From: Sphagnum compactum
Lineage: Eukaryota
Length of the DNA: 64,000 nt
Reading direction: 5' to 3'
NCBI GenBank assembly: GCA_965153455.1
Contig: OZ234493.1
Location: 23,488,213 to 23,552,212 of the forward strand
The translations under genes were made by a program, and so were the position numbers. The notes beneath the pieces are model-generated. The model worked only from the letters and a program-made list of their open reading frames with translations. It did no database searches and was not told where the DNA came from. Below, piece after piece: positions 11,670 through 60,575 of the stretch (positions within the stretch are counted from its first letter, which is position 1; every line of letters starts with the position of its first letter).

Positions 11670-11931
11670 AGGACTTAATCTTATATTTTAAAGTAATTAG
11701 TTTGTTTTCTTCATAAGGACATGAACCCTATGTGAACAATTATAGGATAGCTGCATGACCCTATGATCATAGGGCCTTCAAATGATTGACTGTCAACTAG
11801 TTAGTGCAGTTTCATCTTGGGAAGTTTCTAGAAGTAGGAGACTTCTGAACAGTGAAAGCCATAGCACTACAAGAGAACCTGTCCCCAAACCACTGCACAT
11901 TTCACCCATCTTCTAGGAGGAATGGGATCTC

Positions 11932-12950: not shown

Positions 12951-13097
12951 TATGAAATATTTAATCCCCTTGATATTGATTGGGAATTAGTTTGATCAAC
13001 AATAGCAACAATGTAATTATAAATGAGACATTATGATTAAATTGCATCCACCTTTGAGACATTTTATTTGTTTGCAATTCAATTGTATAGGTTTTTT

Positions 13098-14156
13098 GCT
13101 TCTTCCTTCTACGAAACCGGTTTGGTTTGGTCTGATCACGAGAGGAAGGAATTCTTGGATCCTTCTAGCTAAAGTTTTGGCAAGGATCTTGTATATGCTT
13201 CCCAAAAGTGTGATTGGGCGCCAACTCCCCAGTTTTGAGTGGTCCCCTAACTTCGGAATCAGGGTGATCATGCCCTTGTTAATGTAATCCGAGGTCAATC
13301 CCCGAGCTAGCATGGCCTTGAAGGTTAGTAGTAGCGTGGGGGCTACCTCATTCACATATTCTTGAAAGAATTCTGTTGGGATTCCATCGTGCCCTGGGGC
13401 CTTGCCTTTGGGGAGTAAGGTGATGGCTTCCATGATTTCTGCTAGGGATAAGGGTCGGGTCATGTTGGCGTTCATGGCCTCCGTGACCCGGGTGGGGACG
13501 TTCTCCCAACATCTCTCTTGTGCCTCAGAGGTGCTTGGGGCATGCGCCTTTGACTCATATAGATTGACATAAAATCTTGTGATGTAATGAGAGAGGTCCT
13601 TCTGGTCGGAAATTGTCCTTCCATCAACCTCTAACTTTTTCAGGAGTGTCTTTTTCTTTCCGATTCGGTGGAAATCAAAGAAAGTTTTGGAACAGGTGTC
13701 CCCATACCTGAACCATTTGGCCGTTGAGAGGTGACTATTGCGTTCAACTGAGATTTGGAAAACCTCTGCCACCTTTCCTTGCGATTCGGACAAGATGTCC
13801 CGCACTTGTTCGTTAGTTGGGTCCCACTGGAGCTGCTCCTCAGCCAGCTAGATTTTCTTTGCGTGCATTCTGACTTGCGCCCCTCTTAGGCGGCGCCTTT
13901 CCTTCGCTAATCTCGCGTTGCAGGCCAATACTCTTCTGGTGGCGGCCTCCAACCAGGGGGCCCACTCTGAGTCATTTGAGGGCTTGGGCAGCTCCCCTTC
14001 CCAAGCTTGTAGCATTTCAGCTCTCCCTTTTTCATCTTTGAGTAGGGAAGAGTCAAAATAATGAGATGGTTTGTCAAGTATGTCAGGCTGACCCCATATG
14101 CATAGGACCAAGGGAGAGTGGTCGGAGAATTTTCGAATCGAAGCGACCGCCTTCAC
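13098..14156 (-). mobile_element. Internal fragment of a LINE (L1/Tx1-type) ORF2, from the end of the APE endonuclease to the start of reverse transcriptase
   Basis: FSDHSP (endonuclease C-terminus), KWFRYGDTCSKTFF, KAPGHDGIPTEFFQ, ITLIPKLGD...WRPITLLGSIYKILAKTLARR...QTGFVEGRS. One in-frame stop at 13848-13850. Confidence 0.92.
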
Positions 14157-15268
14157 TAGAGTTACAGAGTATGTTTGTGGATGCCCTACCATATAACCAA
14201 AGAAAGCTTGTTAAATTATTCCATTTGACAAACATGGATAATAAATTATTGGCCATAATCTTTTTGATTGGTAGACCAAACAAGTGGACAGACTCTGCAG
14301 TGCACGAATGGGACTGCAGTCAAAGGCGGCCCAAAGTCAAGGAGTCATGTAAGATGGCAAACAGGGATACCGAGATTGGAGTAAATGGCGCACAAAGATT
14401 CTGTTCCATTTCATGATAAGAAACATCACTAATTTAACTGGCATATTTACTTCCAGTGAAAGGACACAATGATAACTAGAATGAGTGAAAGTTTGAAAAT
14501 GCTAAGTAATTCACAAATTTTTGTTCACCCATCAATGATCATCTATCTGGCCTGCGTTAGCAGAATAGAAATGACTACGTCCTGGGCTGTTTGGAACCTC
14601 TACCTTGTGAAAGATGTCGGCCCCTCAAGACTACTCAATTTTTCAGTGTGTCTGTGCTTATGCATTGATGAATAGAAAAAAAAAGCTCATTTGGTGAGCC
14701 TATCATAAAACCTCGTTCCCAGTAGCTAGCAGAGGCCATGAATTGAAGGGACCAATTCTGAGAGCCACCAAGCTGAGCGGTATACTAAAGGGGAAAAGTT
14801 GTCACCGAAGAACTCTGGCTTGGTTATGGGTCAGGGGACGTCAAACATCTTACGAACTTTGCAGGTGGGAATTCATGGTTCTGCACATCACTCAGTTCAT
14901 GTACTCCATGGTCAGCACTTGTCCTGACAAGTGCAGGACAAGTTTTTTTGTTCTGCATGTATTGCCATTTCTCACCAGCTTTGAACCTGCAACCTCACAG
15001 GAGAAGAACTGGATTATTACATGCAGAAGACTAGTTTCGTTTGCTTACAAGCAGTAGCAGTGTTCAAATTATTTGACCTAAACTTTGCACTAACATCAAT
15101 CAAAATATTGCAGAATATCCTCCGAGTGTTGCACTTGTTGCCACATGTGCAGCAAGGAACACCCACAAAGTTTGTAGGGGGGCAGGTGGTTGAATGTCCT
15201 GTCAGACATCTGGTAACCTAAAACCAACTATTTCCACTCACAAAACAAAGGTATCACACTGTATGGAC

Positions 15269-34439: not shown

Positions 34440-37400
34440 CATGAAAGGGTGGCCTTTAGTATGGGCCAACTTGATGAGCCAGAAAGGCAGCAACAACGGG
34501 ATGATAGTTTGTGGAGTCGAGAACTAGCATGGGCCCATAAACATGGCATTACACAGATGAAGTGTCCTTGTAATAGTTGTGCGGGGAGGGGCAAACCAAT
34601 CACATTTTAAAAAAGTTCGAGCACATTTAATCCATCACAAGGGACATCCACTATTTAGGGTATGGAAAGGCCGGGGTCCTATTTCTAAATCTGATGAAGA
34701 GTGGGGAGAAGTAAGGGCCCGGGTCCTGTTTCTAAATCTGATGAAGAGTAGGCAGAAGTAAGTAGGGGCCCAGTGGGAAAACTAACATGACAAGAGGTTG
34801 ATCAGGGTGTTGAGGTGGAAGAATTATTGGATGACCTTGGGCTGGATGCAATTAAAGGCCCAACCAACCAAATGGAAAAGGTATGCTTGGAGTGAGCATG
34901 GTGCAAGAAGTTTGTGACATCATGGATGATCTTGCAGCTGTGCCAAACAACATGGAGGGGCACCAGGAACCTAATGAACCTGAGCCACATCAAGGAATGG
35001 AGAATCTTGTTGCAGAAACCTTTGAAGAGTTTGTAGCAGATGGAGTTAACAACATGGATGCAGAGATAAATGCCTTAAAAGAAACATGCCAGCCTTTGTA
35101 CCTTGGAACTCGGTCAACAATGCTAGTAGCCACAATGTTATTGTTGAATATCACTATGGTGCATGGTGTTTCTAATAAGTTTGTTGATGAGTTACTCTCA
35201 TTACTGAACAAACACATACTGCCCAAAGGTAACTGCTTGCCGGCATCCATGTACAAACCCTAACTAGCAAGGTAGGCTTAAATTATCAAAACATTGATGC
35301 TTGCACAAATGGTTACGTGTTGTTTCAAAAAACATATGCAAATATGGATTCATGGCCAAAATGTGGGTCAGCTGGTTTTAAAAGCATATGGGAAGTCTCA
35401 TGTAGCAATGAAAGTAGTCTGTCATTTCTCTTTGTCAAATCGGCTATTGTGCATGTATTGAACACTGACAACAGCTAAATCAATGACTTGGCGTAGTAGA
35501 AATAGGAGCGTGGATGGGAAATGTCGGCATGTGCCTGATAGTAAGGCTTGGTTACATGTTGATACTAAATGGCCATAATTTGCCTCAGATCCACGAAATG
35601 TCTAGGTTTAGCTATAGATGGAGTTAATCCGTTTGGAGAAAAAAATAATGTTTGGTCAACTTGGCTGGTATTATTCTTGATCTACAACCTCCCACCATGG
35701 TTAGTGACCAAGAGATTTTTTTAATTGTTGTCACTCATAATACCTGGCCCAGAAAGTGTGAAGATGGTTAACTTTGATGTCTTTTGGCCCCTATCCTAGA
35801 AGAGCTATAGGAACTTTGGAAGAGGGTGGCAAGGGTGGATATAATGCAGCCTGCAGGGAAACGGGCCTTTACATTGAAGGCAATTCTATTGTGGACAATC
35901 CATGACTTTCCTGGTTATGGGATTGTTTCTGGGTGTCAACACCAAGGGTACAGGGCATGCCCTCCACGTAATATTGTTGCTTGATGGTCAAAAGAATTGG
36001 GGAAAGCTGTATTTGAAGGAAATCGTAGGTGGTCGCGAAGGACCCATCCATATCAGATGCACCCCAATGCCCAACACTGTAATGGAAAGGAGGAGATGCA
36101 AACAAGGCCACATACAATGACAGCCATTGAACAATTGAGATGGGTTAGAAGGACAGAGAATTGGGAGGCAGCAGGAAATTCCTTAGGAGCAAAAAGGTGT
36201 CCTTCACGAACAAATGGCATGAGCCTTTTTGATTTGCCATATTGGGAGGTGAGTTGAACTATATTAATACAACTAGTCAGTTCCAAATTATCTGAAAAAT
36301 GTTGCATACTGCAATTAACCCCTCAAGGGTCAATTACTTATATGACATTGCTATGTAGGGAGGGTCAAACATGTACAAGAGAACATTTGCAAAAAACCTA
36401 CATTGTAATTCCTATGAAGTGAGGAACTTAATGAATCCTTAGGATTTGTTATATACTTGTATATAGTCTAAGAAGTATACAATATATTTTGAACATAGGA
36501 CTATATGGTAGATTTTTTGTTAGTTCTACACCTTGCATCTTTGTGGAACTTGGTTAGCACATGGATTCATCACAACTATCAACATGACCAATTTTCACCT
36601 TCTATCACAAATTTTGGGCATGTTGCATGTCTTATGTGAAATGCAAGTTCAAAATTATCTCAAACTAATATGGATTAGGTCAGATATTGTTTAATAAAAC
36701 AAAATTGGTCCCATGATAAATAAGAGCAGTTTAATATTGCAACTTAAAATGATAAGGATTTGTTTAAAGGGTTTCAAGCATCAAATATAGGTCTGATTTG
36801 AAATTTTGTTGCCTAATTCTTTATTGCCACATGTGTATGCTAAGTAGGTGGGTTTTATACATGCACAAGAGGTTTTACTTCCTGGTTATGGCAAATAGGA
36901 GGCTGGATAATTTGGTTATTGCATCCATTTGCAGCATCTACTAATCAGGCACACACTTGATGTGATGCACATTGAGAAGAATATCTACAAAAATCTAATA
37001 AAATTCATATTCGGGATGAAAGACACAATCAAAGTGCATTGAGATATGGAGGTGTGTGGGATCCGGGAAAATCTATGGCTGAAACCAGACATCATGGACA
37101 AGAAGCTGGGATCCATGAAGAGCCATGATTGGCACATAATGATGCAGCAATTAATGCCCCTAGCATTGAGGGGATTATGGATATGCATATGAGATTGTGC
37201 TTGATGTGGTTTAGTTGAGTATTCTGTCACATCTGTGCGAAGGTATGGGACCCATCAGAGTTGGCTTCATTAAGAGAAGATGTAGCAACCACCTTTAGCT
37301 TATTAAAGTGGGAATTTCTTGGAGCTTTTTTGATATGATGACACATTTGACATTACATGTGGTTGAAGAGCTAGCAATATGTGGACCAGTACATTCAAGG

Positions 37401-38724
37401 TGGATATACCCAATCGAACGAACTACGAAAGTATTCAAACGGTATGTGCGCAATAAAACTAGGCTCGAAGCTTCAATGGCAGAAGGGTACATATTGGATG
37501 AGACAATTGGGTTTGTCACAGAATACATGAGGGAGTTTGTCCATGTTAAACAACGAGTCCGGGATGCAGATTAGGAAGGAGTGTCCAGTGAAGTGTTTGA
37601 AGGTTCTGCTAACAAATTTCTATTGGATGTTGTTGATCGAGAGCATGCACATCAATAAGTGCTCAACAATGTCGCATGCTTGCATCCATGGGCTTGGTAT
37701 TCAACCCAAACCATACAATCACATACCATTAAAGTTTGCCACGTTACTAAAACTTCAACTTAAATGTATGGTTGAAAAATCATGTGCATCATGGGCAGTC
37801 TTTAGAAGGTTTATAATATAATTGTGTGGAAATGTGTAGTAGACATGAGGAGGAATTAGCTCGAATTGCAACCTTACGAGCAAAATTTGAAATAAAATGG
37901 AAGTCAAATGAGGCAACATCAAATAGGCCTATAACATTTCTTGATGAGCTAGGAGAGGTTGAAGGATTTTCAATTTGGGTGAGGAAGGCAGTCCGCCGAC
38001 ATATTGCAAATGGTAGTGCCATAGAGGATAGTGATGTAGTGAACTTCTCAATAAGCCTAGGTTTGAGGCTTGGAGGTATGCTAGGATGAAAGCATAAGGA
38101 AATCATTATAGGATCTAGGGGGATAACCAATATACAATGGCCACCTATGATTCGAGAGTTGCATCTGCTTTCTAGCAACAACAAGATACTCATGAGGGAA
38201 CTACACTTGGCCCCATTCAATATGTGAGAGTACGAAAGGAAATCAGCCTGATGGACTATGGGCCAGTAAGTCAATCAATGGTGTTATTCAAGTGTGAGTG
38301 GGTGGAAAATGGTTGTGATCGATGGGGGAAGGCCAACATACCAACGTGATGAAGACGGCTTTTTCTAGCTAATTTCCATCATTTAAAGGCCAAAGATGAT
38401 GAACCATATGTCTTCCCATCACAGGTCCACCAAATGTTTTGCTTTGAAGAACCTACACAAACATGTTGGAAAGTTGTCCTCCACGCGGAACCTAGGCCTA
38501 GACATGTGGTAAGTGAAAATAGCGAGGAAATTATCATAAGTGAAAACAGCGAGGAAATTATCACCCCTAGTGATAATGTGATTGGCTTGGAAGTTCTTCT
38601 AGTCATCCCATAAGTGCCAAGCAATGTGGCATTAGTAGGTGCCATTGAGTTATTTGGAGCTGATGTTGTTTTAGCTGGGGAGGACCTACAAAGGCCCACT
38701 AAAGATGAAGATGGAGGAATGTAG
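34440..38724 (+). pseudogene. CACTA/En-Spm TnpD-type transposase pseudogene
   Basis: Motifs KCPCNSC...VRAHLI (transposase-associated domain), FASDPRNV..LAIDGVNPFG...STW..YNLPPW, LWTIHDFPGYG, LDVMHIEKN, MKSHDWH, FFDMMTHLTLH..GPVHSRWIYPIER (DUF4218-like) and LFKCEWV / DEPYVFPSQV (DUF4216-like). GT-AG intron at ~36249-36934. Many stops. Confidence 0.92.
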
Positions 38725-41700
38725 TGAGAGTTTTAAAACTAAAACTGGGGGTAGATCTGTGAAGTGTGACAATTGAAACTTTATTATGGATTGAGTTCAG
38801 AAATCCCATACCTAGGTTTGGAAACAAGCAAAAGTCATCAATGCTAGCTAGAGCAAAGTTTGGCTTTTGGGCAAAATTGGCAGGCAGTCATCTTGTCACA
38901 TGCCCAAGGGTTGTGGTTAAAGGTTGTGGTAAGTTTTGGCTCCTCACCTTCACTATGCATGTAGTGTGCCATGTTTGTATTCCCCAAGTGTGTTCAATAT
39001 TACTTGATAGTCAATGCTAGTGTGATTGGATTTATTTTAGATCAACCTAATCAAAGTAGAGATTGATGACCTAATCAGTATTAACTTGGATTTGGAAGGT
39101 GTGTATTGAAATTTTGTGCTCAATGATGAAAAAGAGCAAGTGCAACCTTTGATCTTATTGCTTCTTCTTGTTTGATACTCGCAATCACAAACTAGGCTTC
39201 CCTATTGCTTAATCTCAACCATGGAAACCTTTTGCATGTGTACAAGGGAATGTCTTTGCTCTTTCCCAGGTTTTTTGAGCCTAGCTTCTAGGTTTGTGGC
39301 ATTGTGGCATTTGTTGCATTACCCATTAGCTTGGTGTATTTAGTTATCTAATTGACAACCTTATTTAAATACTAGGAGGATGATGAAGCTACTTTGGAGG
39401 TAGATGAAGCTATGATAATTCAATATGAGAGGAAGGAGGAGTTTAATGCATTGCAACAAGAGAGTGAACTGCCACTAAATCAGCTCCTAAAGGATTACAA
39501 GATGGGGAAAGGTAATGAAATGCTCGTGTTTGTCCAACTAGCTATGTTCAGGTTGTTTGAACATTGCATAGTATTTGGAAGCCTAGTAGAGAGTGTAATC
39601 TAATAGCACTATGTTTGTCTGGGCCTTTCTGGCTTCTTCTCATCATGTATTTCACTGTAATTTTTTCTTCTGCTAAAGGCAACTGAATTTTCGTTGTTGT
39701 TCTATGGAGAAATTGTAGACTCATGTGTGGAAAGTTATTATACTATGTAGAGAGTGAGGGGGAAGATCAGGAATTGAGTGAAGGGGAAACAAATGAAAAG
39801 CAGGAGGACAATGAAGAGGATCAGGAGGAAGCTGATAAAGAGATGAATTTTGATGACAAAGAGGGGTTGCCAAAGGTAGTCAAAGCCATCATTCTTGAGC
39901 AGTCACAACATGGTACAGTACATGATGAAACTTCATAGGATGAAATTGAAAAGTTGACTAGATCTTCATGGAATACAAAGGACGGAACCATGCTGATATC
40001 AGAGATGGAGGATTCCAAAACATTGTTGGCAGTGTTAGATCTACAAAATGTGGCCTGGTTGCTGATGAACAAATAAAAGCTAGTGAAAAAGCCTCGGTTA
40101 TGATGGTGTAGGGACTAAAAAAGTCTCAATCTGTGCAACAAAATGACCTTGGAATGCCCCACACAAACAGAACAATCATTGGTCACTTTCTGAAAACAAT
40201 TTGATATAAGGCAGGTGGCAAGCTTGTAACTCTTATGGTTGATTGGGGGTTGACACCAGGGAAGATGTTAACTCAGCCTTGAATTAGAGGAGACCACAGA
40301 TATCACTATGTTGTTTGACTACTATGCTAGTAAAGTAAGGCATGGTGATAGATATGCAGGTATGGATTTTATGCATTTTGTGTTTCTTTTAGGCATATGT
40401 AGGTTTGGTCAATGAAAATCAAACTTTGATGGGGGTAGCAACAATTTCTATGTTGAACTCATGTTCATGAAAGTCAAATTTCAGGGTTCTTTGAACAATT
40501 TGTTACTTAAAACATTATTTCTTTAATAACTAGTGCAGGTTTGCTTGACATTTTATATTTAGCATGTTTTGTGTTGGCTTTAGGTTTAACTTTGTGATAC
40601 AGAAAGCTCCTATATACTTATAACCCTTGCTTTTTTAGTGGAAAAATTGTAGGGTACTCATTTAAGTTGTTCAAAACAAATACAACTATAGCTGGTGAAG
40701 GTCTGAGAGATGAAGAGTGTCTTTATAAGTAATCAACTTGTCTCTTGTAGGCACTTTGATTGAGATGAAGCCTTTTTACGAGCATGGTGTCACCTATCAC
40801 ATAGACACCACCTCCTTGCAACAATTTGATTGAGGCCATGCATGTCTTCTATAGGATGATGAGGACTAGTTCCCTGCAACTATGGTAGATGGGCACAAAG
40901 AGGTAAACTCCTGAAGCTACAACAACAACTAACACCGTTTTCCTCCATGAGTTGCAAAACAAGCAACTTACATATGTTATTATGGTTTGAGTGGCATTTT
41001 GTTGTTTGTTGCTTTTAGAGATTGAACTTGTAACTAGCACCTAGATAGTTACTTCATTTGTGACTTGTATTTTCCATTTGTTGAATGCATGGTGGCGTTG
41101 CCCATTTGTACACAATAGGCATCAATAGTTTTGTGATTGATTGTTTGTTGTCCTTAGCTAAATGGTCATGGGGATGATTGGTATAATGTTTGAAGGATGT
41201 AGAATTCAAATTGACAGTCAGTTAGTTAGGACGATGATGAAGGAACTATTGAAGAAGATGAACAATTGGTCGAGGATGATGTTAGTTCTCTAAACGAAGT
41301 CAGATTTGTTCATTTTTCAGGGTCTATTCAAAGCTCTAGATGAGTGATGTTCTGGATCAAAGTAACTGTTTTCAACTTTTGATTTCCAATTGGTTCTCTT
41401 TTAACTTGCTTTTGTTGGTATGTAAATTGATGATGTAAAATGTGAAAGTGAGATGACTTTGGAAGAGATTTTGGCAAGTATAAATCTGTGAGTAATTCCT
41501 CACAACATATTTCCTATTCTTAAAGCATGACAACATCATTGATCAGCAAAAGCTTCTTTGTTGGGAATTAGAGCTGGAATAGGGCACATTATGTTAATTG
41601 TGTCGAAGATTGTATTTAATCAAGTTTTGCAAAGTGTTCTTGAAACTAGTGGAATTTCTAAGTTATGTTAATTCACTTTTAGGTGTTTTTGTTGATTTAT

Positions 41701-41810
41701 TTGCTTGATATGCCAGTTGGCCAACGAAAACAATGAAGATGTAAGAGATTCACTTAAAGACTTGGGTGACATTCTTGAGGATCGATAAGACTGGACAAGT
41801 GAAGCTAGTA

Positions 41811-41844
41811 TAAGGTTTAGGTTTTAGGGTTTTAGGGCTTAGGG
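41811..41844 (+). repeat. Interstitial telomere-like repeat patch
   Basis: taagg tttagg ttttaggg ttttaggg cttaggg. Confidence 0.75.
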
Positions 41845-41916
41845 CGGTGTAAGCATCAACCTTGTGGGTGTAGATAGTTGTTTTCTATGACAACGACTGG
41901 AACTCAACGATGGATC

Positions 41917-42844
41917 TATTGTAACCCTAGCCTTGGGCTCGCGACCAAGGCCAAGGCTTACAAAGTTGTGGGCCAAGAGTGAGCCCAAGAATCACATTTC
42001 ACGCTCCCGGGGATGCAAGAGAATGTGAGGGAATGAACCCCACACTCCCAAGTGAGCTCCCCACTTTGGGAGTTGGAGTCCTGATGGACTCCCGAATTTT
42101 CAGAGAGCGATTGCAGGTGTCAAAACCCATTGGATTGAAGAGTTCCTTATATCATTGGAAAGCTCTTGGAATGTAGATGTCTAAAATGGGCTCTCATGAC
42201 CAATTTTGATACTTAAAACATAAGTTATGGCCAAAAGAAGAGCCGAGAGTCAAATGCCAATTTGACTCTCGACCACTAAAAGTCAGGAATCTCCCCGATT
42301 TCCTTGCGTGCAGGTAGCGTATCACATACCGTTGGAAAGCTCTTGACAAGGCTACAACTTTGCTTTAGGCCTCACTTCAATTGGAGGTCTGCACACAAAG
42401 TTATGAGCCTCCAAAGTTACGAGAGTCCCAATTTTGGGAATTTTGGGACTCCCACTTGGGAATTTCGAGACTCCCACTTGGGAGTCTCGGGACAAAATGC
42501 CATTTGGGTGCTGGCCCCATGGCTAGGCATAGAGTATACTATAAGAGGGAAGGTGGTGGCTTCCCCCAAGTCTGGGTCGTGGTGAGCCTTGTGAGTCTGT
42601 GTTTGCCTGTGGCTCGTCCGTGCACCAAAAGCGCTAAAACTATGCATTAACCAATTTGTTATTTGGTTTGTGCAAGTCAGTGTGAATAATTGATGCTTGT
42701 CACTTTTCCTAGTCTCCATCCTGGAGTTTGCCTCTCTACCCCCAAAGTGTTACGAACTAGGGGGCGTGCTCCAACTCCTTACTCTTCCACTGTTTTCACC
42801 TTAAATTCACATTTGAGTCTATCAAAGAGCTTGGGAGCGCACCA
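41917..42844. mobile_element. Solo LTR-type insertion (928 bp) with perfect 5-bp TSD
   Basis: Flanked by ggatc (41912-41916 and 42845-42849). Ends ...gcgcacCA and starts ta (degenerate TG). Removing it restores the PIE1 reading M-D-Q-*-A-Q-D-R-C-H. Confidence 0.85.
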
Positions 42845-45284
42845 GGATCAATAGGCACAGGATAGGTGTCATTGAATTGGCTACACACAAGAGGTCCACA
42901 TCTGTTGCCTAGCAAGTGAGAGTACCATTGAGGAAAACATATGGAATAAAGCAAACCAAAAGTGCATATTGGATGACTTGGTGATACAGAGTGGCAATTA
43001 CAACATAGAGTTTCTTAAGAACCTTGACCCAATGGATCTTTTCTCTAGGCTGAAGGGTGTGAAATTGGATGGAATTGATGGTAAAAGTCAAGGCACAACC
43101 TTGATTACAACCAAGGTTCCTATTCCTTCCATTGGATGACTTGAGCAAAGGGCACTTTCAGTTGTAGAGGTAGAAATTGCATTAAAAAATGCAGAGGATG
43201 AGGTAGATTATATGGTGATGAAGCAAGTTGAGTAAGAAGAAGCTACTGAAAACCAAGAATTTGCTGAAGAAGTTTTCATTGGAACTATAGATGATGAAGA
43301 TCTAGGTGATGAGGAAGGAGCAAGAAAATGAGTTTCCTCTCCTATGATGTTGGAAACTGAAGTGACGGGGGGCCTTAGAGCCTCATTAGTGGACCAACAG
43401 TTAGAAGAGGGTGATGCAACTCCTGTGGCTAAGGAGAGCACTCTTGTAAGCACATCTTTTATTCCTATTGATGTTGAAGAGGATATTGATATTCTAGTTA
43501 ATGTTCAACAGATGGCAGTAGTTGTAGTAATAGCAGGTTGTGAAAAAACTTCTTTTGAGGACCAACTTTGACTTGTGGAGTAATATGTAATGTGATTTCT
43601 TGAGCTTTGGGATCCATGAATGAATAATCTTGCCATTAAAACACAAGTGTTATTTTATTTTGCTTCAATCTACCTTCTAGATATTTGAAATGAATTTGTT
43701 GAGTACTGAAAAATTACCAACATTTCCCTTCCATAAGGATGGAGCTATAAATTTAAAGCACATAAACATCTTTCAAATTTTTGCAAGTTGCAAAGGCATT
43801 TTTCTTTGTGCATTTTTTGGCCAGGAATTTAAGTTCATGGACAAATTGTAAAAGCATTGGAAGCAATCTTACATTAGTTGCATTTGAGGAAAAGGAATGG
43901 GAATTAGATCAGTTGGAGAAATTAAAAGAGGAATAATAGGCAGAGATTGATGAGGATAGTGAACCATTATTTTATGAGAGTATTTCAGCTTTTTAATTGG
44001 GAACACAAAGCTCACCACCTTTTTCTGAGGCACCAAATGTAATTAGGTTGAATCTAACTTAGAAATTCAGTTATTTTATTTCCATGTTAAATTTCAATGA
44101 ATTTTAATATAAGAGTAATATGGTTTGCTTATCAAATAACTCTTAGCATTGGAAGAGTACTATTAAATGTAGGTGACAATTTGTAGTCCAACATTGGCTA
44201 GGTGACAATAGATGTGAAATTGAATTGTATGCATTAGGAGAATGATCTTAAGTTGTGTTGGGAACTCTGGATTTCCATTGAACTAATGCTAATTGAAAAT
44301 GTTTCGAAAACAATGATTTCTTGTGTTCAAGACATGTGGATTGTTGGAATGGTAAGCTCACCCTGGTTGAAAATGCTGGTCAATAGCATGCACGGAGGAG
44401 GTTGCCAACAAGAGCATGTGCCCAAATATGGGTAGTTGGACCTTCTTACATCACCTTCTTGGTGATTTTGAGGTGTTTTGTTGAGTTTGCCAAAACCCAA
44501 CATTCTTTGAGATTGTTGTGATGTAACATGATAGTTCATGATAGCACGTTAACATTGTTTTTTAACATCAATAGCAAAGAAACACTAATAATTTAGGTTG
44601 GTGGCCAACCAAGAAGAAGTTTAAGCAAGCTCAAACAATGTTCCTTGGGAAAACCATGTACATTTATTGGTACACATCAACATGTTTAGCCAAAAAATGT
44701 ATCATTTCAAATTTGGGAAGTACTTTCCACATCTTCCATCATTTTAGGTTCACTGTTTAGTGTTATTGTATTTTCTTATGCTCCAAAAATTTGAATTTAC
44801 TATAGAATGGGTTCAAATTGTCAATGTTCCTAAATGAACATTGGCCCTTGCACTGGAAACCCATAGGATCAAGGCTAGAAATGAATTTTAACACCTAAAT
44901 CCAACCCCAAAAGCACACATCAAAAGCAAACAATATACCCCATGGACATCATTTATCACACCCTAAATATAATCTTAATATAATTTTAATACAACTTTAA
45001 AGTATAATTAGTGTTAAAATTAACATAATATATTGTTAATATATGCACAATATACATTTAATACATGTCCAAAAAATACGTAAAACATAATTTTAGTATA
45101 CCCTAACTACCATCTAAATACACCTCTAATATGTTCCTAAACACCCTAGTATATATCAATTATATTGGTTCACATCATAGAAGTAACTAAAAAAGACTAA
45201 ATTTGTAATTAATTAGACATAAAAGCTTATTTGGGGATGAAATATTCAATAAGTTAGTCCATATGGATGGATGAATAATCTATT

Positions 45285-45432
45285 AATTGCAATGTAATTG
45301 CAACATAGTTGCAAAAATAATAATAAATTGATGGTAAGTAGTTGCAAAAATGACCAAACATAGTTGCAAATGACAATTAGTTACATGTAGTTGCAAATTG
45401 GATGGTGACATAATATAAGATTTCTTTTAGTG
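45285..45432. mobile_element. Right terminus of a CACTA element
   Basis: Ends tttcttttagtg (reverse complement cactaaaagaaa, near the CACTACAAGAAA consensus), preceded by several tagttgcaaa subterminal repeats. Confidence 0.7.
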
Positions 45433-45889: not shown

Positions 45890-48190
45890 TTAAAATAATA
45901 TCGTGTTTTTGTGTTCTTCCATCGCATCATGGCCTTTTCATAAGGAAATTCTCATTATTGTAAAATTGTTGTGCATAAAAACGAATACACAAATCCAAGT
46001 GGCAAGTCAAGCAGTTTTTCAATTTATTTTTCCTGAATGTCATTATTGAGAAACAATGTTCATCTTCCATAGATTCGAAGACTTGAACATATTCAATCTC
46101 AACAACTTTATGAATTCTCTAAGCTTATGTTTGAAGATTGAAGTAAAACTGATCTTGGTCCATAATCAAGTGACAAGATTCACAAGAAAATCTTCCTTCA
46201 TGACTGCTTCACTATTTGCAATCAGTGTCATCTTTTTAAAAAAACATTGCACATCCAAAACATGGCCATCTAGGAGAGCTTTCATAATAACCCCTTCTTT
46301 TGTCACCTTGCAAGGCATAGAGTAGGCAGCCTTGATGATAGTCAAATGTTCATGGAAAACATCTTCAACATTATTGGGGTGATCAACCCAAAAATTAAGG
46401 TAGATCACACCTAATGCCAACATAAGATCATGGTTTGGGAATCCTCCCTCCAACTCATGGACCAAAGACTTGGGTAGCATCTTCATAAATTGTTTTCACA
46501 TGAGCCAAGACCTTGGGAAAATTTGGCCTCAACACAGGTCTGAATCCCTTCTCACAAGACAACACTGATTCACAGAATATTTAGAACCAAAAAACCATGA
46601 TCTTATGTTGGCATTAGGTGTGATAACAAGGCAATCAGCTTCCTCACCATTTAGGTCTACACACCAATTCATTGGTCAATTTTGCTAATGAAAGTTTCAA
46701 GAGCCTTCAACTCATCAAATGCAGGTTGTCAAATTTGTTTTAAGGATCACTATAAAGCCAATAGAGCTTTAGTTGGTGGATATTCACTACATCAATAAAA
46801 TCACAAACAAATACATTGCGAGATTGTGCAAACTTGATCAAAGTAGGCTCATAGTCCAAAAGTGGCAAAATGGCATGTAAACCAAAATTTAGTTTCAAGT
46901 CACAAAGGAGGTTCAAATTTTTAGTGGTAGTGTTGTTCCGCAAAGCATCATCATGCATCGTTGTAATGAAAGGCCGATATTGCTCCATCACACGTTTCAT
47001 GGGAAACAACATGCTGATCCATTTAATTTTCATGTTTTTCAATAATTTGTTTCCTTTTTCTACAACCACATCACACAAGCTTTGAAATTCAAGGAATGTT
47101 TTAGGTGAATGAAAGAAAAACCCATATAAAGTGTGCAAAAGGGCTTCCAATTGAACAACCAAACTTGTCTTTGATAAAACCACCATAATCAAGAACAAAA
47201 CAATGTACTCCCATTAGAAATGGAGCCACATTCTCTTTCATTTGTGTGTTGGCACTAGCTCTGGCACCTTGAAACACACTACTGCCATTGTAGACCATTG
47301 AAATGAGCTTGGCTCCCAATTGCTTAACATTCAAACCCCTAAATGTGACCATGGTAGTGAACATTGAATGAAAAATGTTCTCAGTTGTCCCCTACACACC
47401 CACCTTCTCCACACAAGCCAAAAGTGGAATTCATTTCCAACCTTGAACAACAAATAAATGCAAAGAAATCCAAGATGTATTATCTATTGCCGTAACCTCG
47501 TTAATGTTGACAAATATAAAATTTGCAGCAACATCATTTTGAGTGGGTGCAGTTCATTAGTCCCCGTTCATTAGTCCCCCTTCACTAGACTAGTGAGTTC
47601 ACTATGTTCCCACTAGGTCTCGTTCATTATAACCAGTGAATTCACTCAAAATTCAGTGAAATCACTTGGCATATAGGGACACCTTTTGTTGTAGTGTACT
47701 CATTCATGGATTAGTTATGCCCCACTTGTGTCTAATAGGCCAATGTTTTTTAGGAGTGTGTTTGACTTTAAACACAATGAAGACGTTTTTTAAACCTTCA
47801 AAATTTGTCATAGCTCAACCTCTAGATAGTAAATGGTAGATTAAAATAAAGTGGACAAGTTTTCTTTTTTTGTCTTGCAAAATTTCAGAAGTAATTAGAT
47901 CAAGAATAGAAGGATGCTCAGAAGTGGTGTAGATTTGTCCATTCAATGCATGTTGGCATTTATTGAAATAGAAAACACCTACTTCCACCCTTGGACCAAT
48001 AATTTTGGATTTGTGGTGACCTACATGTTTCAACAGGTTATTGAGTTTCAGAATAAGAAGCTTTTCCTCGCCTTCTACCTTTGAACAAACAACGTAACAT
48101 ACTTGATGCACATTACTTTTGCAGTTTACTATAAATTTTGCCCAGGGAAAACACGAGACCCACTTATTTTGAAAGTGTCGCACACCTTCA
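45890..48190 (-). pseudogene. hAT transposase remnant (ZNF862-like, TTF-type zinc finger N-terminus)
   Basis: RHFQNKWVSCFPWA...CYVVCSK...LLKHVGH; KLISMVYNGSSVFQGAR...VAPFLMGVHCF; LYGFFFHSPK...KWISM; hAT dimerisation-like C-terminal region. Many disruptions. Confidence 0.8.
47545..47696. mobile_element. One-ended CACTA terminal fragment inserted in the hAT remnant
   Basis: Homologous to 5547-5700 and ends ggacaccttttgttgtagtg. The left TIR is missing. Confidence 0.7.
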
Positions 48191-51318: not shown

Positions 51319-54283
51319 TGAGATGTGAAATCAAGTAGTTCATTCATAACTGAACAAAACGCAGTGATTTTAATTCTGATTTGTTACTTCTTCCTTTTTT
51401 GTGTTTTCTTGCAATATAGTTTGAATTTATTTATTGCAGGAATTTTTTTAAAAAAAATGTTACCCGTTATTACTACTAATTGAAACATAGCACTAATCTC
51501 ACACCTAGATTGGTCCTGAGCTCTTGCAATAAAGTTTGAACGATTTAATTTTACAAATTTTCGATTCTGATTTGTTACTTGCTCATATATTACCAATAAG
51601 AAAATTATGATAATATAGGGCCCTTTTTCATTTTCCATCTCTTCATTCTCTCTTTTCTCTTGAAATAAAGTTTGAGCAATTAAATTGCAAGGATTTCCAA
51701 TTCTTATTTGTGGCCAGTTGTTGCTAGTTGAGCTAATGAGATCTTGCAACGGCCCCTTTTGTCGGTCTTTCCTTCTTCTTTTTCTATTCTCTCTTTTTTG
51801 TCATGAATTATTTTTGATCTTATGTATTATTTGTTTCTAAAGAAAATACCTTGACTTTACCTCATTACAAAAGCAAAAGAAAATATACCTTATTTACTTT
51901 CGGTCACATGTACTAATTTTTCAGTCACATATAAAAACTAAAATCATAATCCGTTTTACATTTTAGACAAATTTGCCGACAATGTTATTACCTATTGGCA
52001 TTGTTGAAAAGGCAATACTTAATCTTAAAATGCACGGCACGGTCAAGTCATATGTGTGGTTACACGCTTCTAAGACTCTGGTTGCGCGCGTTTGCGGGAT
52101 CAAACGCCTGATCGACTCCTAAACGCCGGATCATGCGCCATTGGGAATCTTGTCACGATTTTGCACGGTAGTTGTCATCACGCATCGGAACCTTTTTACC
52201 AAGAGCTGTCGGATCGATCACAATTTTCACACAAGTACAACATGACGGTTAGTAGTCGACGGACCAAGGAATATTAGGATCTAGTGAAGTAGCTGGATCA
52301 TACCAGACAATTATAAATCCAGTATCTACGGAGAGAGTTATTATCATCATACCTTATGTGGATTTGCTCCAGGAATTTGATTACTTTGATCATGGAATTA
52401 ACATTGTTCTCGTACGATTGGTTAAGACCAAATCACTGTTCCGTCATTGGAGATCACTGGATATGTTTAAAACAAAATTTCACCTGAAAACCACTAATTT
52501 TTATATGATTGGTTCATGTGATTCAACCTAGGTGCACAGAGTTTTAAAATCTGAGTGAATTCATGATTTACCGCACACTTTTTTGTGGACAGGTTTCAAT
52601 ATTAAGGGGGTGTAACTTTGGAGTTGCATTAGCTGCATTTTGGAGAGAGCTCACCAGAGCAGCTAATTAGTGTTCCTAGAGGAAGCTTTGGCCACGGAGC
52701 AGTGACAACCAAAATGCTCTCAGGGATGAAATATGACGAATGTTCCAGAAAGTGTCACGTAGGTCGCAAATGATTCGAGGTACGAGTTGATTAAATCATA
52801 CGAACCAAGTCCGATCTCTCAAAACGGAGAAATTTAACGAAAGGGAGCTAACATCTTGACTTGATCGGTGTAGTTGACTGGAAGATTCGGAACGGGGGAT
52901 AAATCGTCGTAGTACTGTCTCGAAACTTGTGTTCCCCCAATAAGAAAATTTGGTACTCCGATTCCTTGCGTACATGGTTGGGTTTCATCTAATTCATGCG
53001 CTGCCTACATCCCTCCCCAAATCGTAACCTTCAGAATTGCCAATTTTCATTCATTCAGATCATCGGTATACATTTTGTCGACGGGAATATTCTGCTAGCT
53101 GGAATATGCGGTGGTCGAAACTCGAGTGCCGGCCCCGTGGACGAAATTGCAAGGCTGTTTTCGGCTGCCTGCAACCATGGGCAAGGGAAGTTCATAAGCT
53201 GGTGCAATAGCAGGTCGTAGATTCATAACCCTACGACCGGCTATCACACCAGTGTGTCGACCTGCCTCTGAGTACCAGAGAGGTTCTCTTTCGAAGCTCG
53301 ATATAGTGCCTCTGATCAGCTACTGAAATTTCTCTATTTTTAAAGTCCGGAAGTTTTGGTTACTAAGGATCTGTACTTATAGACTCTCAAAATCAAGCTG
53401 GTGGCATTAGGCAGTATCCACGCCTGAATTAAATTTCGCCCAGAAATTAGTTACGCAATTACAGAGAAGTTCATGATCATCGTTCTCCTCACTGCGCGCA
53501 CTCGCTTCGGCAACCAGTTCACACACTTTCTCCCATCAATTGATCTCAATATTATATGTGATGAAGAATTGTCTTGAGACGTGGGATAATCACGTCTAAG
53601 TTTCTCATATTGGAGAGTGTTTTGATTGGTCATGACCTTTTCAAGATTTGCTGTGAGGTGCTTCTGTAATTTGCAAGAAATTTTTCTTGAGCATATATTG
53701 CATTAATGGTTGTCGCTGCATACTGAGCTCCGTTTATTGAATCGATTCAGCTGCACACATGAAGTGTAGTGCTTTTGCAGGGAGTTTGCGGAACACTGTA
53801 CTACTTAGTAAAGTGGTTCATTCCTAGGTTTAGATGAGGAAGCAGAGAATACCAGTAACGATTTATTTGGCTTTCGTTTTCCGACAAATGATGCCATGAA
53901 CCTTGAGATGACGGAAACATGGCTAACGTCTGACAGTCGGTAAATATATTGCGTAGCTTTAGCATTTGCCTAAAGATTGGAGATCTCCTCTTTAGATTCA
54001 TAGCGGTATTTGCGATAGAGCTAGTTACTCCTGTCCGTGAGGTATAAGTTTGAAAATACTGTACCTCCTCTGGAGCGGTGGAGGAGCTTTCAACAGAACT
54101 GTCGATCTGGTAGGGTGATTAACCTAGTTTTTGCTTCACACCCGCGGGGCGTGAGGAGTAGAAGTAGAGGACCAGTGACTAGTCTCTTCAGCTTTACAGC
54201 TTGGTCAAGGTTTGAAAAATTCAGAATTCTAATAGTTTCGCAATTCTAGTTTACTAAACAAGTTTCTCAATCAAACCGTCGTG

Positions 54284-56404
54284 ATGTCGGGCCAGGTGAC
54301 GCCGAGCCCAAAGGTTGAAACGAATCCATTTCATATCGGGTGCCCCCGCCCGACATCTGTCTTCAGCTGGCTCAACCTGTTCTTCGGTACCGTGATCGCG
54401 ATTTACATTGTGTATACTCGGTGGTCGTTGTACAAGCATAGAAGAACCGCCCGGTGCACGCTTGTGTCATTCGGGGAAGGATGGGTGGCTGTCGGCATGG
54501 GCGTGGTGGTGAGTGCATATAACTATGCCGTCGCTTGCGATGATGCGCAAAACCTTTTGGTGGGAATGGGTGCGGCAGCATGCGCGATCATATCGACACA
54601 GTGGATTTATTACATTCACAGCTTAGACGCCAAGATGAGACGTGCGACTGTGTTGACGACGATTGGAATTGTGCTGGTCGCGGCTGTGCAGCTGGGCATA
54701 TGTGCTGGTTCCGTGGCTCCAGGGATACTCGGAGTTCTCGCGACCACAGCAGGTTCATTGTTAGCTTTCTACATCGTCCTGCACGCGGGGTACACGGTCA
54801 TGATAAGCTGGCCAACTGCAGTTGTTTTGTACCAGATGTACAAGGATACAGGGACCCCGCTCGATTCGGAGCACATGGGTACAGGCTTATTTGACAAGAC
54901 ATATTTTGCAATCACATGCGAGGCTTTTTACAGACACCAGCGACGCGCTGAACATTGGGCTGCATGCTTACCGCGTCGACATACGCATCATGAGTGCAAC
55001 ATTGAGGACCATGAGCATCATACACAAGAGCCTGATTGGATTCGGGCGATTCGCTTGTATGAAGTCACTGGTGACATGCTGGACGGCAGCACATACAACC
55101 AGTACAATTGTGTGGCGGTGGCGATCATGTCTGATTGGGTGACTGCATCAACTTACACTGTCTATGTGGCACTGAGCATAACCACATTGAACAGAGATAC
55201 ATTCAGTGACCTAGGAACTGTGTTCATGCTCGTTCTCGTTGGTTTCGTGACTGTCTTCGCGGGGGCGCTACACTGTGCGACCTTGATAGCGCGCTTGAAG
55301 GCCGGCATCACTGTGGATGCCATCAACTTGACGATTGGAAAGAAAGTGCATTCGCAGCTGATCCGTAAGTTGAAGCAGCATAAAGTAAAGCGCGTGTCAT
55401 TCTTCCAGCTTATGGAGGCAAGGGTCTATGTGCTCAGGAAGATGCTGATCAAGAAGAAGCGCCAGTCTACAAGGGAGATCGTGATAATGAATAGGCAGGA
55501 ATTAATCACGCATTCTATACGCTGGACAAGACGGAAGATAGAGAGAGGGATTGAACTGCAGAGGGGGGTAGGTGCAAATCATCAAGGATATCAACTCCTG
55601 CTTCTTCCAGCCAAGCTCGTACAGATGATCAGCTACGTGTCAGTGATACCCATGGTCATCATTGCTCACATCATCGACATGGCTGTAGGGTTTCAACGAC
55701 AAGTTGACCTTGGCAAACGGCACACGCTGTCGTACCCACGCCATGCAGAGATAGTTCATATGCTAGAATGGGCGACAGAGCTTGCGAATGTGCCTTGTCA
55801 CCAGTGGGAGATCTTGCTAAAAGTGTTTTACCAGCTTTCCCTCTGTGTGGATGAGATTAGAGATGGAATCCAGAATGTGCGACGATTGCTAAGGCCATAC
55901 TGTAGTCACAATCCTGCATTGACGGACAAGGTTATTGACGTCATAGTAGAAGCAGCGTCGGAAGGATGGTCCTTCCGCAATTGCAAGTACAAATCTATCC
56001 GCGCAATAGGCGTCGCGGTTCTTGAGTTGTTCCAGAATGTAGGCTTAGACGTTGAAACAGGACAGATTAATCAGGTACCAAGAATACGCAACGACCATCC
56101 TTCCGAGTCTGTCCTAAATTCTCAGGAATTAAGTAGCGCCTCGCAACAACCGTCGGGTACTAATGCATGCCTTGCTAGTGTAGACGACCTTCGTTTCAGC
56201 GTTCTCAATGACACCGAAGGCAGCAAGATTCGTGTGTCTAAGAGATTTGCAAGTCAGAGAGCACAACCACGTCGAAGTGTGAGCGCTATAATGAGAACCT
56301 CTGACGATCCTGAATCTAGCTCGGATGAGGAATCTCTTTCAAATTCTAGTGATTCTGATGAATCACCAACTGATCAACCACTCGTAGCTGGTGAGACAGA
56401 CTAA
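54284..56404 (+). CDS. Intronless 706-aa multi-pass membrane protein of unknown family
   Basis: Uninterrupted 2.1-kb ORF (ATG at 54284, TAA ending 56404), GC- and CpG-richer than the TE-filled flanks. It has about 7-9 hydrophobic segments, a His-rich loop RRHTHHECNIEDHEHH, a basic cytosolic-type segment and a Ser/acidic tail. Confidence 0.85.
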   Translation: MSGQVTPSPKVETNPFHIGCPRPTSVFSWLNLFFGTVIAIYIVYTRWSLYKHRRTARCTLVSFGEGWVAVGMGVVVSAYNYAVACDDAQNLLVGMGAAACAIISTQWIYYIHSLDAKMRRATVLTTIGIVLVAAVQLGICAGSVAPGILGVLATTAGSLLAFYIVLHAGYTVMISWPTAVVLYQMYKDTGTPLDSEHMGTGLFDKTYFAITCEAFYRHQRRAEHWAACLPRRHTHHECNIEDHEHHTQEPDWIRAIRLYEVTGDMLDGSTYNQYNCVAVAIMSDWVTASTYTVYVALSITTLNRDTFSDLGTVFMLVLVGFVTVFAGALHCATLIARLKAGITVDAINLTIGKKVHSQLIRKLKQHKVKRVSFFQLMEARVYVLRKMLIKKKRQSTREIVIMNRQELITHSIRWTRRKIERGIELQRGVGANHQGYQLLLLPAKLVQMISYVSVIPMVIIAHIIDMAVGFQRQVDLGKRHTLSYPRHAEIVHMLEWATELANVPCHQWEILLKVFYQLSLCVDEIRDGIQNVRRLLRPYCSHNPALTDKVIDVIVEAASEGWSFRNCKYKSIRAIGVAVLELFQNVGLDVETGQINQVPRIRNDHPSESVLNSQELSSASQQPSGTNACLASVDDLRFSVLNDTEGSKIRVSKRFASQRAQPRRSVSAIMRTSDDPESSSDEESLSNSSDSDESPTDQPLVAGETD

Positions 56405-57083: not shown

Positions 57084-60000
57084 ATGGTGACTGTATCAGA
57101 GATCTAGGTGTTCGTGTTGTGTTTGTCCTGGCATCGGCGGTGATCAGCATTCTGCTCGCTTTGCCGCATTGGTTTATCGTGTCCAAGGTCTTGGTCGGCA
57201 GTGAAGGCAAGGGCAACAAATGAGTACTAGGACCTTGGTCCTCCCTTTTTGTACTCCCTCGTCATCTGGTCGTGTGTTTTGTTTTTCAATAAAGTTTGGC
57301 AGGGTTACATCACTCGATTGTATACAAGGATGGCGTCTCCGAGGCGAGGTGGTTGCCAAATGCCCCGCTCGGTCCAAGCGGCCATTTTGAAAGGTATGAA
57401 AGCGACACGCATTCTTTTGTGCGTCGTTCGCTGGCACGGAACAAGAGGTGCAATCATGTCACATCGCGTGTATTTTCTATTGGCTTTTCTTTTTTCTGCA
57501 AACCGTCTTATGAAATATGTCTGTTTTGGCTGACATTGTGCGAATGGAAAGAAAGGTGTGGAAGGAGTTCTTGATCGATTTTCAACTTTAAAAACTGCTT
57601 GATTTCAGTTGGGTTAATCTGTCTCTATTTTCTTTATTTTTCGCGATTCGTAAGAGGATCAAGAAGATTGGTAAGTTGTACAATAGTTCCTGCCAAGGTT
57701 TTAGTATTGGTCGCAGTCGGAACTTGTCACCATATAGAGGTTTGTTGAAGAATGAACAGCGGTGTGCTTCGTTGAAGTCAGTGATTTGCTTATACGCAAT
57801 GGTAGATATCTTCAAACTTTGTAGAGCAGCAAGTCTATTGTTGAGAACTTGTGTTTCCAGATGTCATGTCTGTCGGTCTATTTCTGTTTCCATATCTTTC
57901 ATATGCTGTTGATTGAGATATTAAATTTCATACTTGGTAGTCTAACAATTGTCACAGATGTCAGACAGAAGCTCTTATAGTTGTCTCCTATCAGATGGCT
58001 TGTTTACATTGAAGTGGTGTCCAGCATCTAATCTCTCATCTACATTTGCAAGTGTGATCAAGTTTCTTGTTGACTTGTGTTGTCATTGAAGAAGATTGAG
58101 TTCATTGTCTCTTGATTTGCAAGAGCTAAGTCATTCCTGGCAATAGAGTACCAGTACCGGGATGTGAACATATTCTCTATGATCATCTTTGTCTTCCAGT
58201 CAGTCACTTGTTGGAGGATTGAAGTGGGAGAGAGAGTTCCTTGTGAATATGAAACTGCTCAGGAATGTCCTTCCACTATTGCTTATGCCCTCTTCACCAC
58301 TATGGCATTCATTCTTGGAGCCCTCATATCAACCCTCTCACGAAAGCTAGGGATGAAGATTGCAACTTATGCAAATGCAAGGTCAACATTTGAAGCATGC
58401 AGACGAGTTCAAAAGGCCTTCAAGGTTGCTTTCCAGTCTGGTTCAGTGATGGGCTTCTTGCCCACTGCAATCTTGTCTGTCAAATTATTTTTCAAGGATG
58501 ACATGGTCTATATGAGGCCATTACTGGTTATGGTCTTGGTAGATCCTCAGTAGCTCTATTTGACCTGTAAGGGTATGGGCACTCCTGAGAATTCCAGTAC
58601 TTTTGTTTTCCCTTGGTTCATAACAACATCCATCTTTGAGCTTGCATTTCCAAGATCTCCTTTGCTTTGCCCAAGGAAACACTTTCTCAAGAGGGATTGC
58701 ACATATCATTTTTTCCTATTCTTACATTCAGATGATGTGTGAGACCTGGAGGGATGTAGGTTCTCTAATAGCTCAATGTGATTGCTGTTTTCTAATGATT
58801 TGAGACTGTGATCTGTGTGTTCTTTAAACCAAAGTGGAAATGTAATATATGTCCTTTTGACTAGAAAGAGCCTGAAAATACAAAATTAATCTCTTAGTAT
58901 GACTAGAATCTGTAATCTGCTTCTATGAGTTTGGTTGTACTGAACTGATGTGTCCACCTCCACAATGTATGGAGGATAATTGTCTCTTGGACTGAACAAC
59001 TTATTGCTGATAATGTGGGAGACAATGCAGGCTGGATATTGTGCATATGGGAGTTTATTTGTTTGGATCATTTTGCAGTGTCAACTTGTGTTGTCCTTGT
59101 GGTTTCATCATCTCATTCTTTGGCACAGACAAGAACTTTCTGGCTATGAGCTTCCCTCTTATTATCTGTGCTGCTGGCATTTTTGTGTGCCTCCTTGCAA
59201 CTCTGGTTGCTACGAACTTGTTCAAGTTATGAAAGGGGTGAAGTAAATTGAACCCAGGCTCAAGTATCAGTTCCAATGATCTCCACTATTGATGACCATT
59301 GCCATTTTCTTGGTATCGTGGTATGCACTGCCTGAGACATTTTCATATCAAAGTTGTCAACCCAAGGTTGTCAAGAACTAGTGAGTATTCTTATTTGATT
59401 CTTAAATCACAATTCTAAACTTGCACACTATGCTTTGCTTTGTTTGTACAAGTTTCTGCCATTTGAGGCTTGGGCTGCTTATGGGCTCCATTTACAAGCA
59501 TATATTCCTCTGTGTTAGATCAGGCTAGTCTCATCACTGGTTTTATCACTGAATACTTCACCAACAACACACATTGGTAAGGATCAAGAGTTGTGCTCTT
59601 CAAATTTGTGCTTGTTTCAAATACTTGTGCTTAAAGGACCATATGTTATACAATGCAGGAGGCCCTCAACCACGACCCTCTATGTAGGCCTTAGGCTTTA
59701 GATTCTTGCTTGTACAGCCCAGATAAAATCAAAGGAAGTTTACCCTTACAAGCTTGTTAATGCAGCTTAATTGAAGATTGTCTTGACTTCGTATTAGCTA
59801 TGTCTTTTCAGAATTGTGAGAGCTAACAAAGTCAGTAGGGTGTAATGGCAGCAAGTCACATCATTCATGATGAAGGTGATGGTCTAAGACTTTGTGGGTG
59901 ACACCCACAAGATTATGACTGCCCTCCTTTCTTCTCTTTTTGTTTGGTTTTGGCAGAACAGACATAATCTAGTTACCTTCTGAGTGTTGCTTTGGATTTT

Positions 60001-60575
60001 CTCTGCAATCTCATGGGTGTATTATCTTACATTTGTAGTTTCTGCCATCATTCTCTGTAGATTTGGCTAATGTCCTAGGGGCATTTATTACCCACATTCT
60101 TGAAGTTTGTTGTTATCTTGGTACACTACATAATCTCAATTTCTCACTTCTATTACTGAATTCGTCATTCAGTAGGTGCCATTTCGTCGAGGTTCAGAGT
60201 TTTCACATTTTAATGGAGCATGTGTGTTTTTTTGCCTCAATCAGACCTGTGCAAGACGGGGCAGACTTTGAAGAGCAGTAGCTGCCACAAACATTATCTT
60301 TGGAAACTGGCTTTGGGCTACAAGTCTGTCATCATTCCAGCGTTCGCAAATCCTGCAGCCATTTATTTGAGTTTCAGTTTAGCTGACATGTATGACATCA
60401 CTGTTGCTGCTCATGGAGTGTTCAGCGCACAGGCAACAGGTCTTGCTATTGATGCTTATATGGTCTTATCAGTGACAATGCTTGTGGGGTTGCTGAAAGG
60501 GCTGCTATGAACCTCCATGAAGTCCATGAAACAACTTATGCATTTGATGCTGCTGGGATCACATCTTCCATTGGG
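57084..60575 (+). pseudogene. AVP1: Vacuolar H+-translocating pyrophosphatase (type I, AVP1/VHP1-like) pseudogene, intron-containing and 3'-truncated
   Basis: Exon remnants VFVLASAVISILLALPHWFIVSKV; DGVSE..VVAKC; LGMKIATYANARST..KAFKVAFQSGSVMGF; LYEAITGYGLG; IADNVGDN; GFITEYFTNN; PVQD..AATNIIFG-LALGYKSVIIP; ATGLAIDAYG-ISDNA; DAAGITSSIG. Multiple frameshifts and stops. Confidence 0.93.

Follow-up and report, generated by a model that had tools for sequence, protein, structure and literature searches.

The window analysed here is a 64,000-nt stretch of the Sphagnum compactum genome (C1:23488213-23552212), part of a 382-Mb genome in which all search counts are lower bounds. Within it, the remnant of a CACTA transposase gene is followed on the same strand by a part-copy of the host chromatin remodeller gene PIE1 and then by a CACTA terminus, as follows.

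34441..38724, plus strand: decayed CACTA TnpD transposase gene in three coding blocks with many stops and frame changes, 66-72% identical in nucleotides to its closest relatives
38725..39076: spacer, with no other genome match at E<=0.1
39077..41814, plus strand: PIE1 piece A, a genomic copy of C3:10326742-10323999, 11.8% diverged
41815..41842, plus strand: 28-nt telomere-like filler (TTAGGG/TTTAGGG-type) in place of 3,881 nt of host sequence
41843..41919, plus strand: first part of PIE1 piece B, the end of helicase-C, from C3:10320117 onward
41920..42844: 925-nt dispersed repeat, a later insertion with an 8-nt near-duplication at its flanks (7 of 8 positions match)
42845..44051, plus strand: second part of PIE1 piece B, with post-helicase blocks, one intron and a short exon, up to C3:10318831
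44052..44889: segment between the PIE1 piece and the right arm, with no other genome match at E<=0.001
44890..45432, plus strand: CACTA right arm; GTTGCAA-type subterminal motifs occupy 45287-45400, and the terminal repeat reaches 45432

This anatomy of TnpD remnant, PIE1 part and terminus at 45432 agrees in all three parts with the preliminary description of the locus. The TnpD remnant runs from an ATG at 34441 to a TAG at 38722-38724. Its assignment over 34440-38724 is borne out by a match to DUF4218 (Pfam, E 3e-24) and by comparison with the TnpD of an intact relative, which yields 10 tblastn pieces distributed over the three frames; stops occur in 8 of these pieces, and their amino acid identity to a relative with Transposase_21 is 36-82%. 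That even the nearest TnpD relatives reach only 66-72% nucleotide identity, and match the right arm over approximately 100 nt, counts against the reading as one element. On the minus strand the sequence of the CACTA end at 45432 is CACTAAAAGAAA. A search with 44000-45432 returned 487 candidates, and among the 40 that were scored all 39 non-self matches stop within ~7 nt of 45432, while at 29 fetched loci the terminal sequence is common and divergence begins past it, so that the proposed terminus is a true family boundary. Two features of CACTA (En/Spm) elements are present, the TnpD/Tnp2 transposase as a remnant and a right terminus with subterminal repeats.

An end of the same type lies 3' of TnpD on the same strand in 7 of the 8 TnpD loci fetched, the locus on C2 having no such end within 20 kb, and TnpD lies 6.7 kb from the end here, a spacing for which the four longest relatives give values of about 6-8 kb. 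Complete relatives, one of which spans 28,750 nt (C14:7405876-7434625) with both terminal repeats and a near-intact TnpD, have their left terminus ~16.6 kb upstream of TnpD, and a 3-nt target duplication was seen in three of four complete copies checked. The domain set of the relatives' TnpD comprises TAD, Transposase_21, DUF4218 and DUF4216 (Pfam). Between TnpD and the right end these relatives contain RHM-like and UBC sequences (the C14/C6 family, which is young, with 32 matches at 96-100%), HSP90 (C11) and peptidase M18 (C15), and in one of the Pfam searches behind these identifications 6 of 127 ORFs had any match. Because the relatives hold such assorted host pieces, this interval is a general cargo slot and not the TnpA position; the suggestion that the PIE1 piece sits where TnpA would be is not upheld, since complete relatives carry unrelated host cargo there. 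No TnpA ORF was found at this element, Pfam analysis of the 49 surrounding ORFs giving one sub-threshold match. The only TnpA-like candidate, a weak one in a relative, lies upstream and antisense (PF03004 E 0.014, below the cut-off; Atlas 0.83), and a genome-wide PF03004 search gave no match, yet its controls were likewise without a match.

The donor of the PIE1 piece is an intact host PIE1 gene on contig C3, to which 39077-44051 is 85-87% identical, introns included; identity to a second PIE1 paralogue on C5 is 67-87% and occurs in patches. The gene on C3 is a complete PIE1, with an HSA region, a split ATPase, helicase-C and Myb/SANT. Its ATPase exon is nearest to SRCAP/SWR1 and the named matches of its post-helicase exon are mostly PIE1, which confirms the PIE1 identity first proposed. 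The donor thus shares the HSA region, split ATPase and SANT/Myb with the known PIE1/SWR1/SRCAP remodeller, whereas the copy differs from it in having no HSA, no ATPase, no SANT, no open frame and little of helicase-C.

The copy, 12% diverged, retains seven introns in full alongside nine exon pieces and is therefore genomic DNA; a processed or spliced copy is ruled out by the retained introns, and the "spliced PIE1 exons" of the preliminary description are in fact unspliced. Piece A begins mid-exon, past the HSA exons, and holds the acidic-repeat exons with six introns, while the right edge of the PIE1 piece falls 72 nt inside an intron of the donor (C3:10318831). Helicase-C, which the preliminary description lists as retained, is reduced to the last ~36 of the 113 domain residues, and this remainder is itself interrupted by the repeat insertion at 41920-42844. 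HSA, the SNF2 N-lobe and SANT are absent from the copy, in agreement with that description; nor does the copy have a start or a fusion to TnpD. Most of its splice sites are intact, with two acceptors damaged.

Comparison of the two host paralogues also revealed a 155-nt intronic block common to C3 (~10325115-10324961) and C5, with 93.5% identity and an 89-nt identical run, in surroundings where the adjacent introns are 40-66% alike. The block corresponds to 40704-40854 in the window and contains a mini-exon bounded by AG...GT and carrying a stop, making it a candidate poison exon or gene-conversion tract.

The TnpD-PIE1 junction occurs once in the genome, and only one PIE1-bearing element, with no open frame, was found. 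A post-helicase protein search, with nine candidates scored, led to three places, namely C3, C5 and this locus. A fourth, partial match (C13:5048250-5051570) is a truncated old PIE1 paralogue with 5' exons alone, near a PPR-like gene; it was rejected as a further transposon-borne copy, since 40 kb around it contains no transposase, TnpD included, and no CACTA terminus. A scan for the deletion junction described below gave 0 matches in metagenome records, from which those of very near genomes may be missing, and the two matches to its control pattern are intact host orthologues, 97% identical to C3.

No left terminus was found in the window or in 10 kb beyond each side of it by motif scans, clustering of subterminal motifs or sensitive BLAST with the relatives' arms, and neither the left terminal repeat nor the target duplication that it had been proposed to locate was found within 44 kb upstream of the unit from TnpD to the end. 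Candidates at 11865 and 19209 were rejected as lacking subterminal motifs and a matching 3-mer, and a candidate at 2651 was rejected as it pairs with 5090 in a separate element. That element (2651-5090) is a non-autonomous CACTA of 2.44 kb; its 24-nt terminal repeats are 96% complementary, and 11- and 13-nt tandem arrays lie between them. The closer relatives on C15 and C11 likewise have no left end in the 20-23 kb upstream. With no left terminus or target duplication found at this locus, we infer, rather than observe, that TnpD and the right end belong to one element.

These absences bear on the possibility that the arrangement is a chance juxtaposition, in which an ectopic duplication of PIE1 came to lie with a TnpD remnant on one side and an unrelated CACTA end on the other, or entered an already dead element, and was never mobilised. 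Besides the lack of a left end or target duplication, the single-copy state of the PIE1-bearing locus, the spacers at both junctions that match nothing else in the genome and the abundance of ends of this type (the 487 candidates) are all compatible with such an origin; on the other hand, order, strand and spacing agree with those of the relatives (7 of 8), the relatives hold host cargo in the same slot, and no gene in the window flanks is common to the PIE1 loci on C3, C5 or C13. Four matches from 655 flank ORFs were obtained, of which three are repeats or retroelements and one is marginal. A segmental duplicate of PIE1 is rejected on this basis, and the arrangement that the preliminary description had named as the opposing case, a syntenic PIE1 duplicate with independent insertions of TnpD and the terminus, finds no counterpart in these flanks or in the recurrent TnpD-end pairing. 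We consider chance juxtaposition unlikely, and its variant in which PIE1 entered an already dead element differs little in meaning from capture. That a CACTA element captured the PIE1 fragment is well supported, and, as with the unrelated pieces of host genes in the relatives, it was probably taken up as cargo by chance.

Between 41814 and 41843 the copy lacks 3,881 nt of the donor (C3:10323999 to 10320117). Lost with them are the SNF2 N-lobe and the insert, together with roughly two thirds of helicase-C, and the ends of this deletion are bridged by the 28-nt filler. The join is in frame, for which the chance is one in three, and the filler contains two TAG. The 694 kb of DNA fetched contains 13 telomere-like tracts, of which 11 are in CACTA left arms and one is this filler, a distribution inflated by the bias of the fetched DNA to CACTA loci. 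In complete relatives the left arm contains ~110-nt tandem repeats whose telomere-like tracts share the strand of the filler, which suggests that the element's own left arm served as the template; telomerase addition is the alternative. Pieces A (11.8%) and B (14.1%) are similarly diverged from C3, and the order of capture and deletion is thus not told by their divergence.

Of 680 codons in the copy 18 are stops, where neutral simulation with context-specific rates derived from introns predicts 17.9. The copy also has four frameshifts, in line with the earlier verdict that it is dead. Seven indels were scored, of which one is an in-frame 3-nt loss and two (41916 and 42852) were dropped as artefacts of cutting around the insertion. 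Divergence from C3 is 13.0% in exons and 12.1% in introns. The C-to-T/G-to-A rates in the copy are 46% at CG, 39% at CHG and 10% at CHH sites, compared with 2.8% for the reverse transitions, and the host branch shows no deamination excess (12 host vs 134 copy C-to-T/G-to-A changes in piece A polarised by C5). High CG/CHG decay fits transposon-type methylation, and from this mutation spectrum we infer that CG and CHG methylation probably drove the C-to-T excess of the copy.

Analysis restricted to C-to-T/G-to-A changes, which lie mostly on the copy branch, showed that CG+CHG sites changed at nearly equal frequency whether nonsynonymous (75/180, 0.42), synonymous (35/82, 0.43) or intronic (80/207, 0.39; Fisher P=1.0), and CHH sites showed a non-significant trend to a nonsynonymous deficit (nonsynonymous 38/458, synonymous 28/201, intron 63/591; P=0.086). 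The pairwise dN/dS between copy and host PIE1, a calculation proposed at the outset, is 0.56 (bootstrap 0.42-0.76), lower than the intron-based neutral null mean of 0.77 (P=0.013), with a nonsynonymous deficit at P=0.009. Taken at face value this low dN/dS, with the CHH trend in the same direction, counts against neutral decay. The pairwise measure takes in the host branch, itself under selection, however, and we tentatively attribute the low value to that branch; dN/dS between C3 and C5 is 0.37 overall and 0.20 in conserved exons. The decay of the copy is near-neutral.

RNA evidence comes from one polyA run carrying the same species label, possibly from another individual, of which 12% was read and mapped at 82% likeness. 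In this run, which does contain reads of host PIE1, 0 of 604 reads were at least 99% like the copy and 15 of 604 were 95-99% alike. At the 40 differences between copy and host with the best support, with 309 further rows beyond these, every read has the C3 letter (40/40). The TnpD bins have zero depth save two at 0.5 and 0.1, and among the reads listed there was none over the filler and none at a TnpD-to-PIE1 joint, such as the spliced reads that it had been proposed to look for in RNA-seq data. These results are moderate evidence for the absence of RNA from the copy, and the locus likely makes no protein.

The near-neutral decay, the single copy and the lack of reads of its own weigh against the earlier idea of a TE-encoded chromatin modulator, which is unlikely; the locus gives no sign of a working chromatin regulator. 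An ancestor of the present dead copy might nonetheless have expressed an ATPase-less PIE1 piece, its acidic repeats in frame with the post-helicase blocks, as a dominant-negative or H2A.Z-recruiting anti-silencing factor. The in-frame deletion join, the pairwise dN/dS beneath its neutral null and the mostly intact splice sites are what such a history would leave, yet it is opposed by the two stops inside the filler, a stop count at the neutral rate, the absence of constraint at CG+CHG sites and the lack of a start, HSA or TnpD fusion. The piece also remained unamplified, as against ~30 copies of the relative with metabolic-gene cargo, and the deletion junction has no metagenome match where the control pattern recovers intact host orthologues. 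We regard a protein-coding past of this kind as extremely improbable.

A silenced copy could also be a source of siRNA methylating or dampening host PIE1, an epigenetic cross-talk reported for maize donors (bioRxiv 10.1101/777037, in the excerpts considered here). Copy and donor still have 112 exact 24-mers over 503 nt in common, and the methylation-type mutation spectrum of the copy would suit such a role; against it, the donor is expressed and free of the deamination excess, one copy diverged by 12-14% would be a weak source, and syntenic donors in maize keep their expression according to the same excerpts. Judged from sequence, cross-talk of this kind is highly improbable. The combined proposition, that a moss CACTA made an in-frame ATPase-less mini-PIE1, patched it by its own telomere-like arm repeats and acted through it as protein, or acts through it as small RNA, on H2A.Z deposition, is very unlikely.

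Taken together, the order of TnpD, PIE1 piece and CACTA end, the intact C3 donor, the deletion with its filler, the single copy and its decay describe a dead single-copy CACTA relic with an intron-containing part-copy of host PIE1, likely neutral cargo from DNA break repair and likely methylation-silenced since, a reading to which we assign a probability of about 0.8. Under this capture reading a break within the element would have been mended by gap repair, and template switching would have brought in part of PIE1, as suggested by the intact donor, the mid-exon left junction, the intronic right junction and the likeness of the filler to the telomere-like tracts in the relatives' left arms. 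A second break, at capture or later, would have taken out the ATPase, with filler drawn from the element's own left arm or, alternatively, added by telomerase. The copy would then have been silenced by CG and CHG methylation and decayed, the 925-nt dispersed repeat would have inserted afterwards, and later loss of the left arm would leave an element that cannot move.

Gene capture by CACTA elements has been described in Arabidopsis (PMC6379663) and Chenopodium (PMC8978399) and reviewed alongside VANC/KIU and siRNA conflict (PMC13317346); these comparisons draw on excerpts of each source. The locus is another instance of this known process, with an eye-catching donor. As in the Arabidopsis Pack-CACTA elements (PMC6379663), a CACTA terminus encloses host chromosomal DNA, here the C3-derived PIE1 piece at 85-87% identity. 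The excerpted account describes those elements as non-autonomous: they lack a transposase but have two ends and a 3-bp duplication, whereas this locus has a TnpD remnant and one end. As TnpD is kept, the Pack-CACTA assignment of the preliminary description stands as regards capture and fails in the strict sense, in which an element has no transposase, has two ends and is mobile in trans. The neighbour-excision model in those excerpts (PMC6379663) predicts disruption of the donor, whereas the C3 donor is intact with no terminal motif nearby. The Chenopodium Jozin type, which keeps ORF1, is alike in the TnpD domain set (seen here in the relatives), in ends with subterminal repeats, in host fragments outside coding sequence and in tandem arrays within the element (PMC8978399, in part). 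It differs in that its captured fragments are 80-bp AP2 pieces in the 5' region, as opposed to kilobases with introns 3' of TnpD, and in that the present copy is without a left end (same excerpts of PMC8978399). VANC/KIU of Vandal MULEs offers a model of a TE-borne, partly host-derived chromatin factor, but the excerpts present these as conserved TE genes (PMC13317346), in contrast to a single pseudogenised fragment in near-neutral decay; with 18 stops, four frameshifts and a single copy, no open frame is conserved across copies. No report of PIE1 capture by transposons was found by title or abstract start among the papers listed, and the one paper retrieved on CACTA elements in Sphagnum concerns rDNA.

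The telomere-like filler gives a hint of the way in which cargo becomes rearranged inside such elements, and the captured and deleted parts of one host gene provide a built-in control for donor cross-talk, both being of modest value. Use of the PIE1 piece by a transposon against silencing would, if true, connect H2A.Z with the counter-defence of transposons, but the evidence speaks against such use.

Several other features were noted in the window. A LINE-like reverse transcriptase remnant lies at 13017-14210 on the minus strand (RVT_1 E 5e-6, below the cut-off), and 54236-56404 on the plus strand is an open frame of 722 codons that has hydrophobic stretches in its N-terminal part and is without a Pfam match. 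To the right of the CACTA end, a decayed transposase-like region contains a perfect 33-nt inverted repeat at 46404-46624, with arms 155 nt apart. Finally, pieces like an H+-pyrophosphatase gene are present at 58116-60510 on the plus strand (Pfam H_PPase E 8e-17 at 58116-58550).
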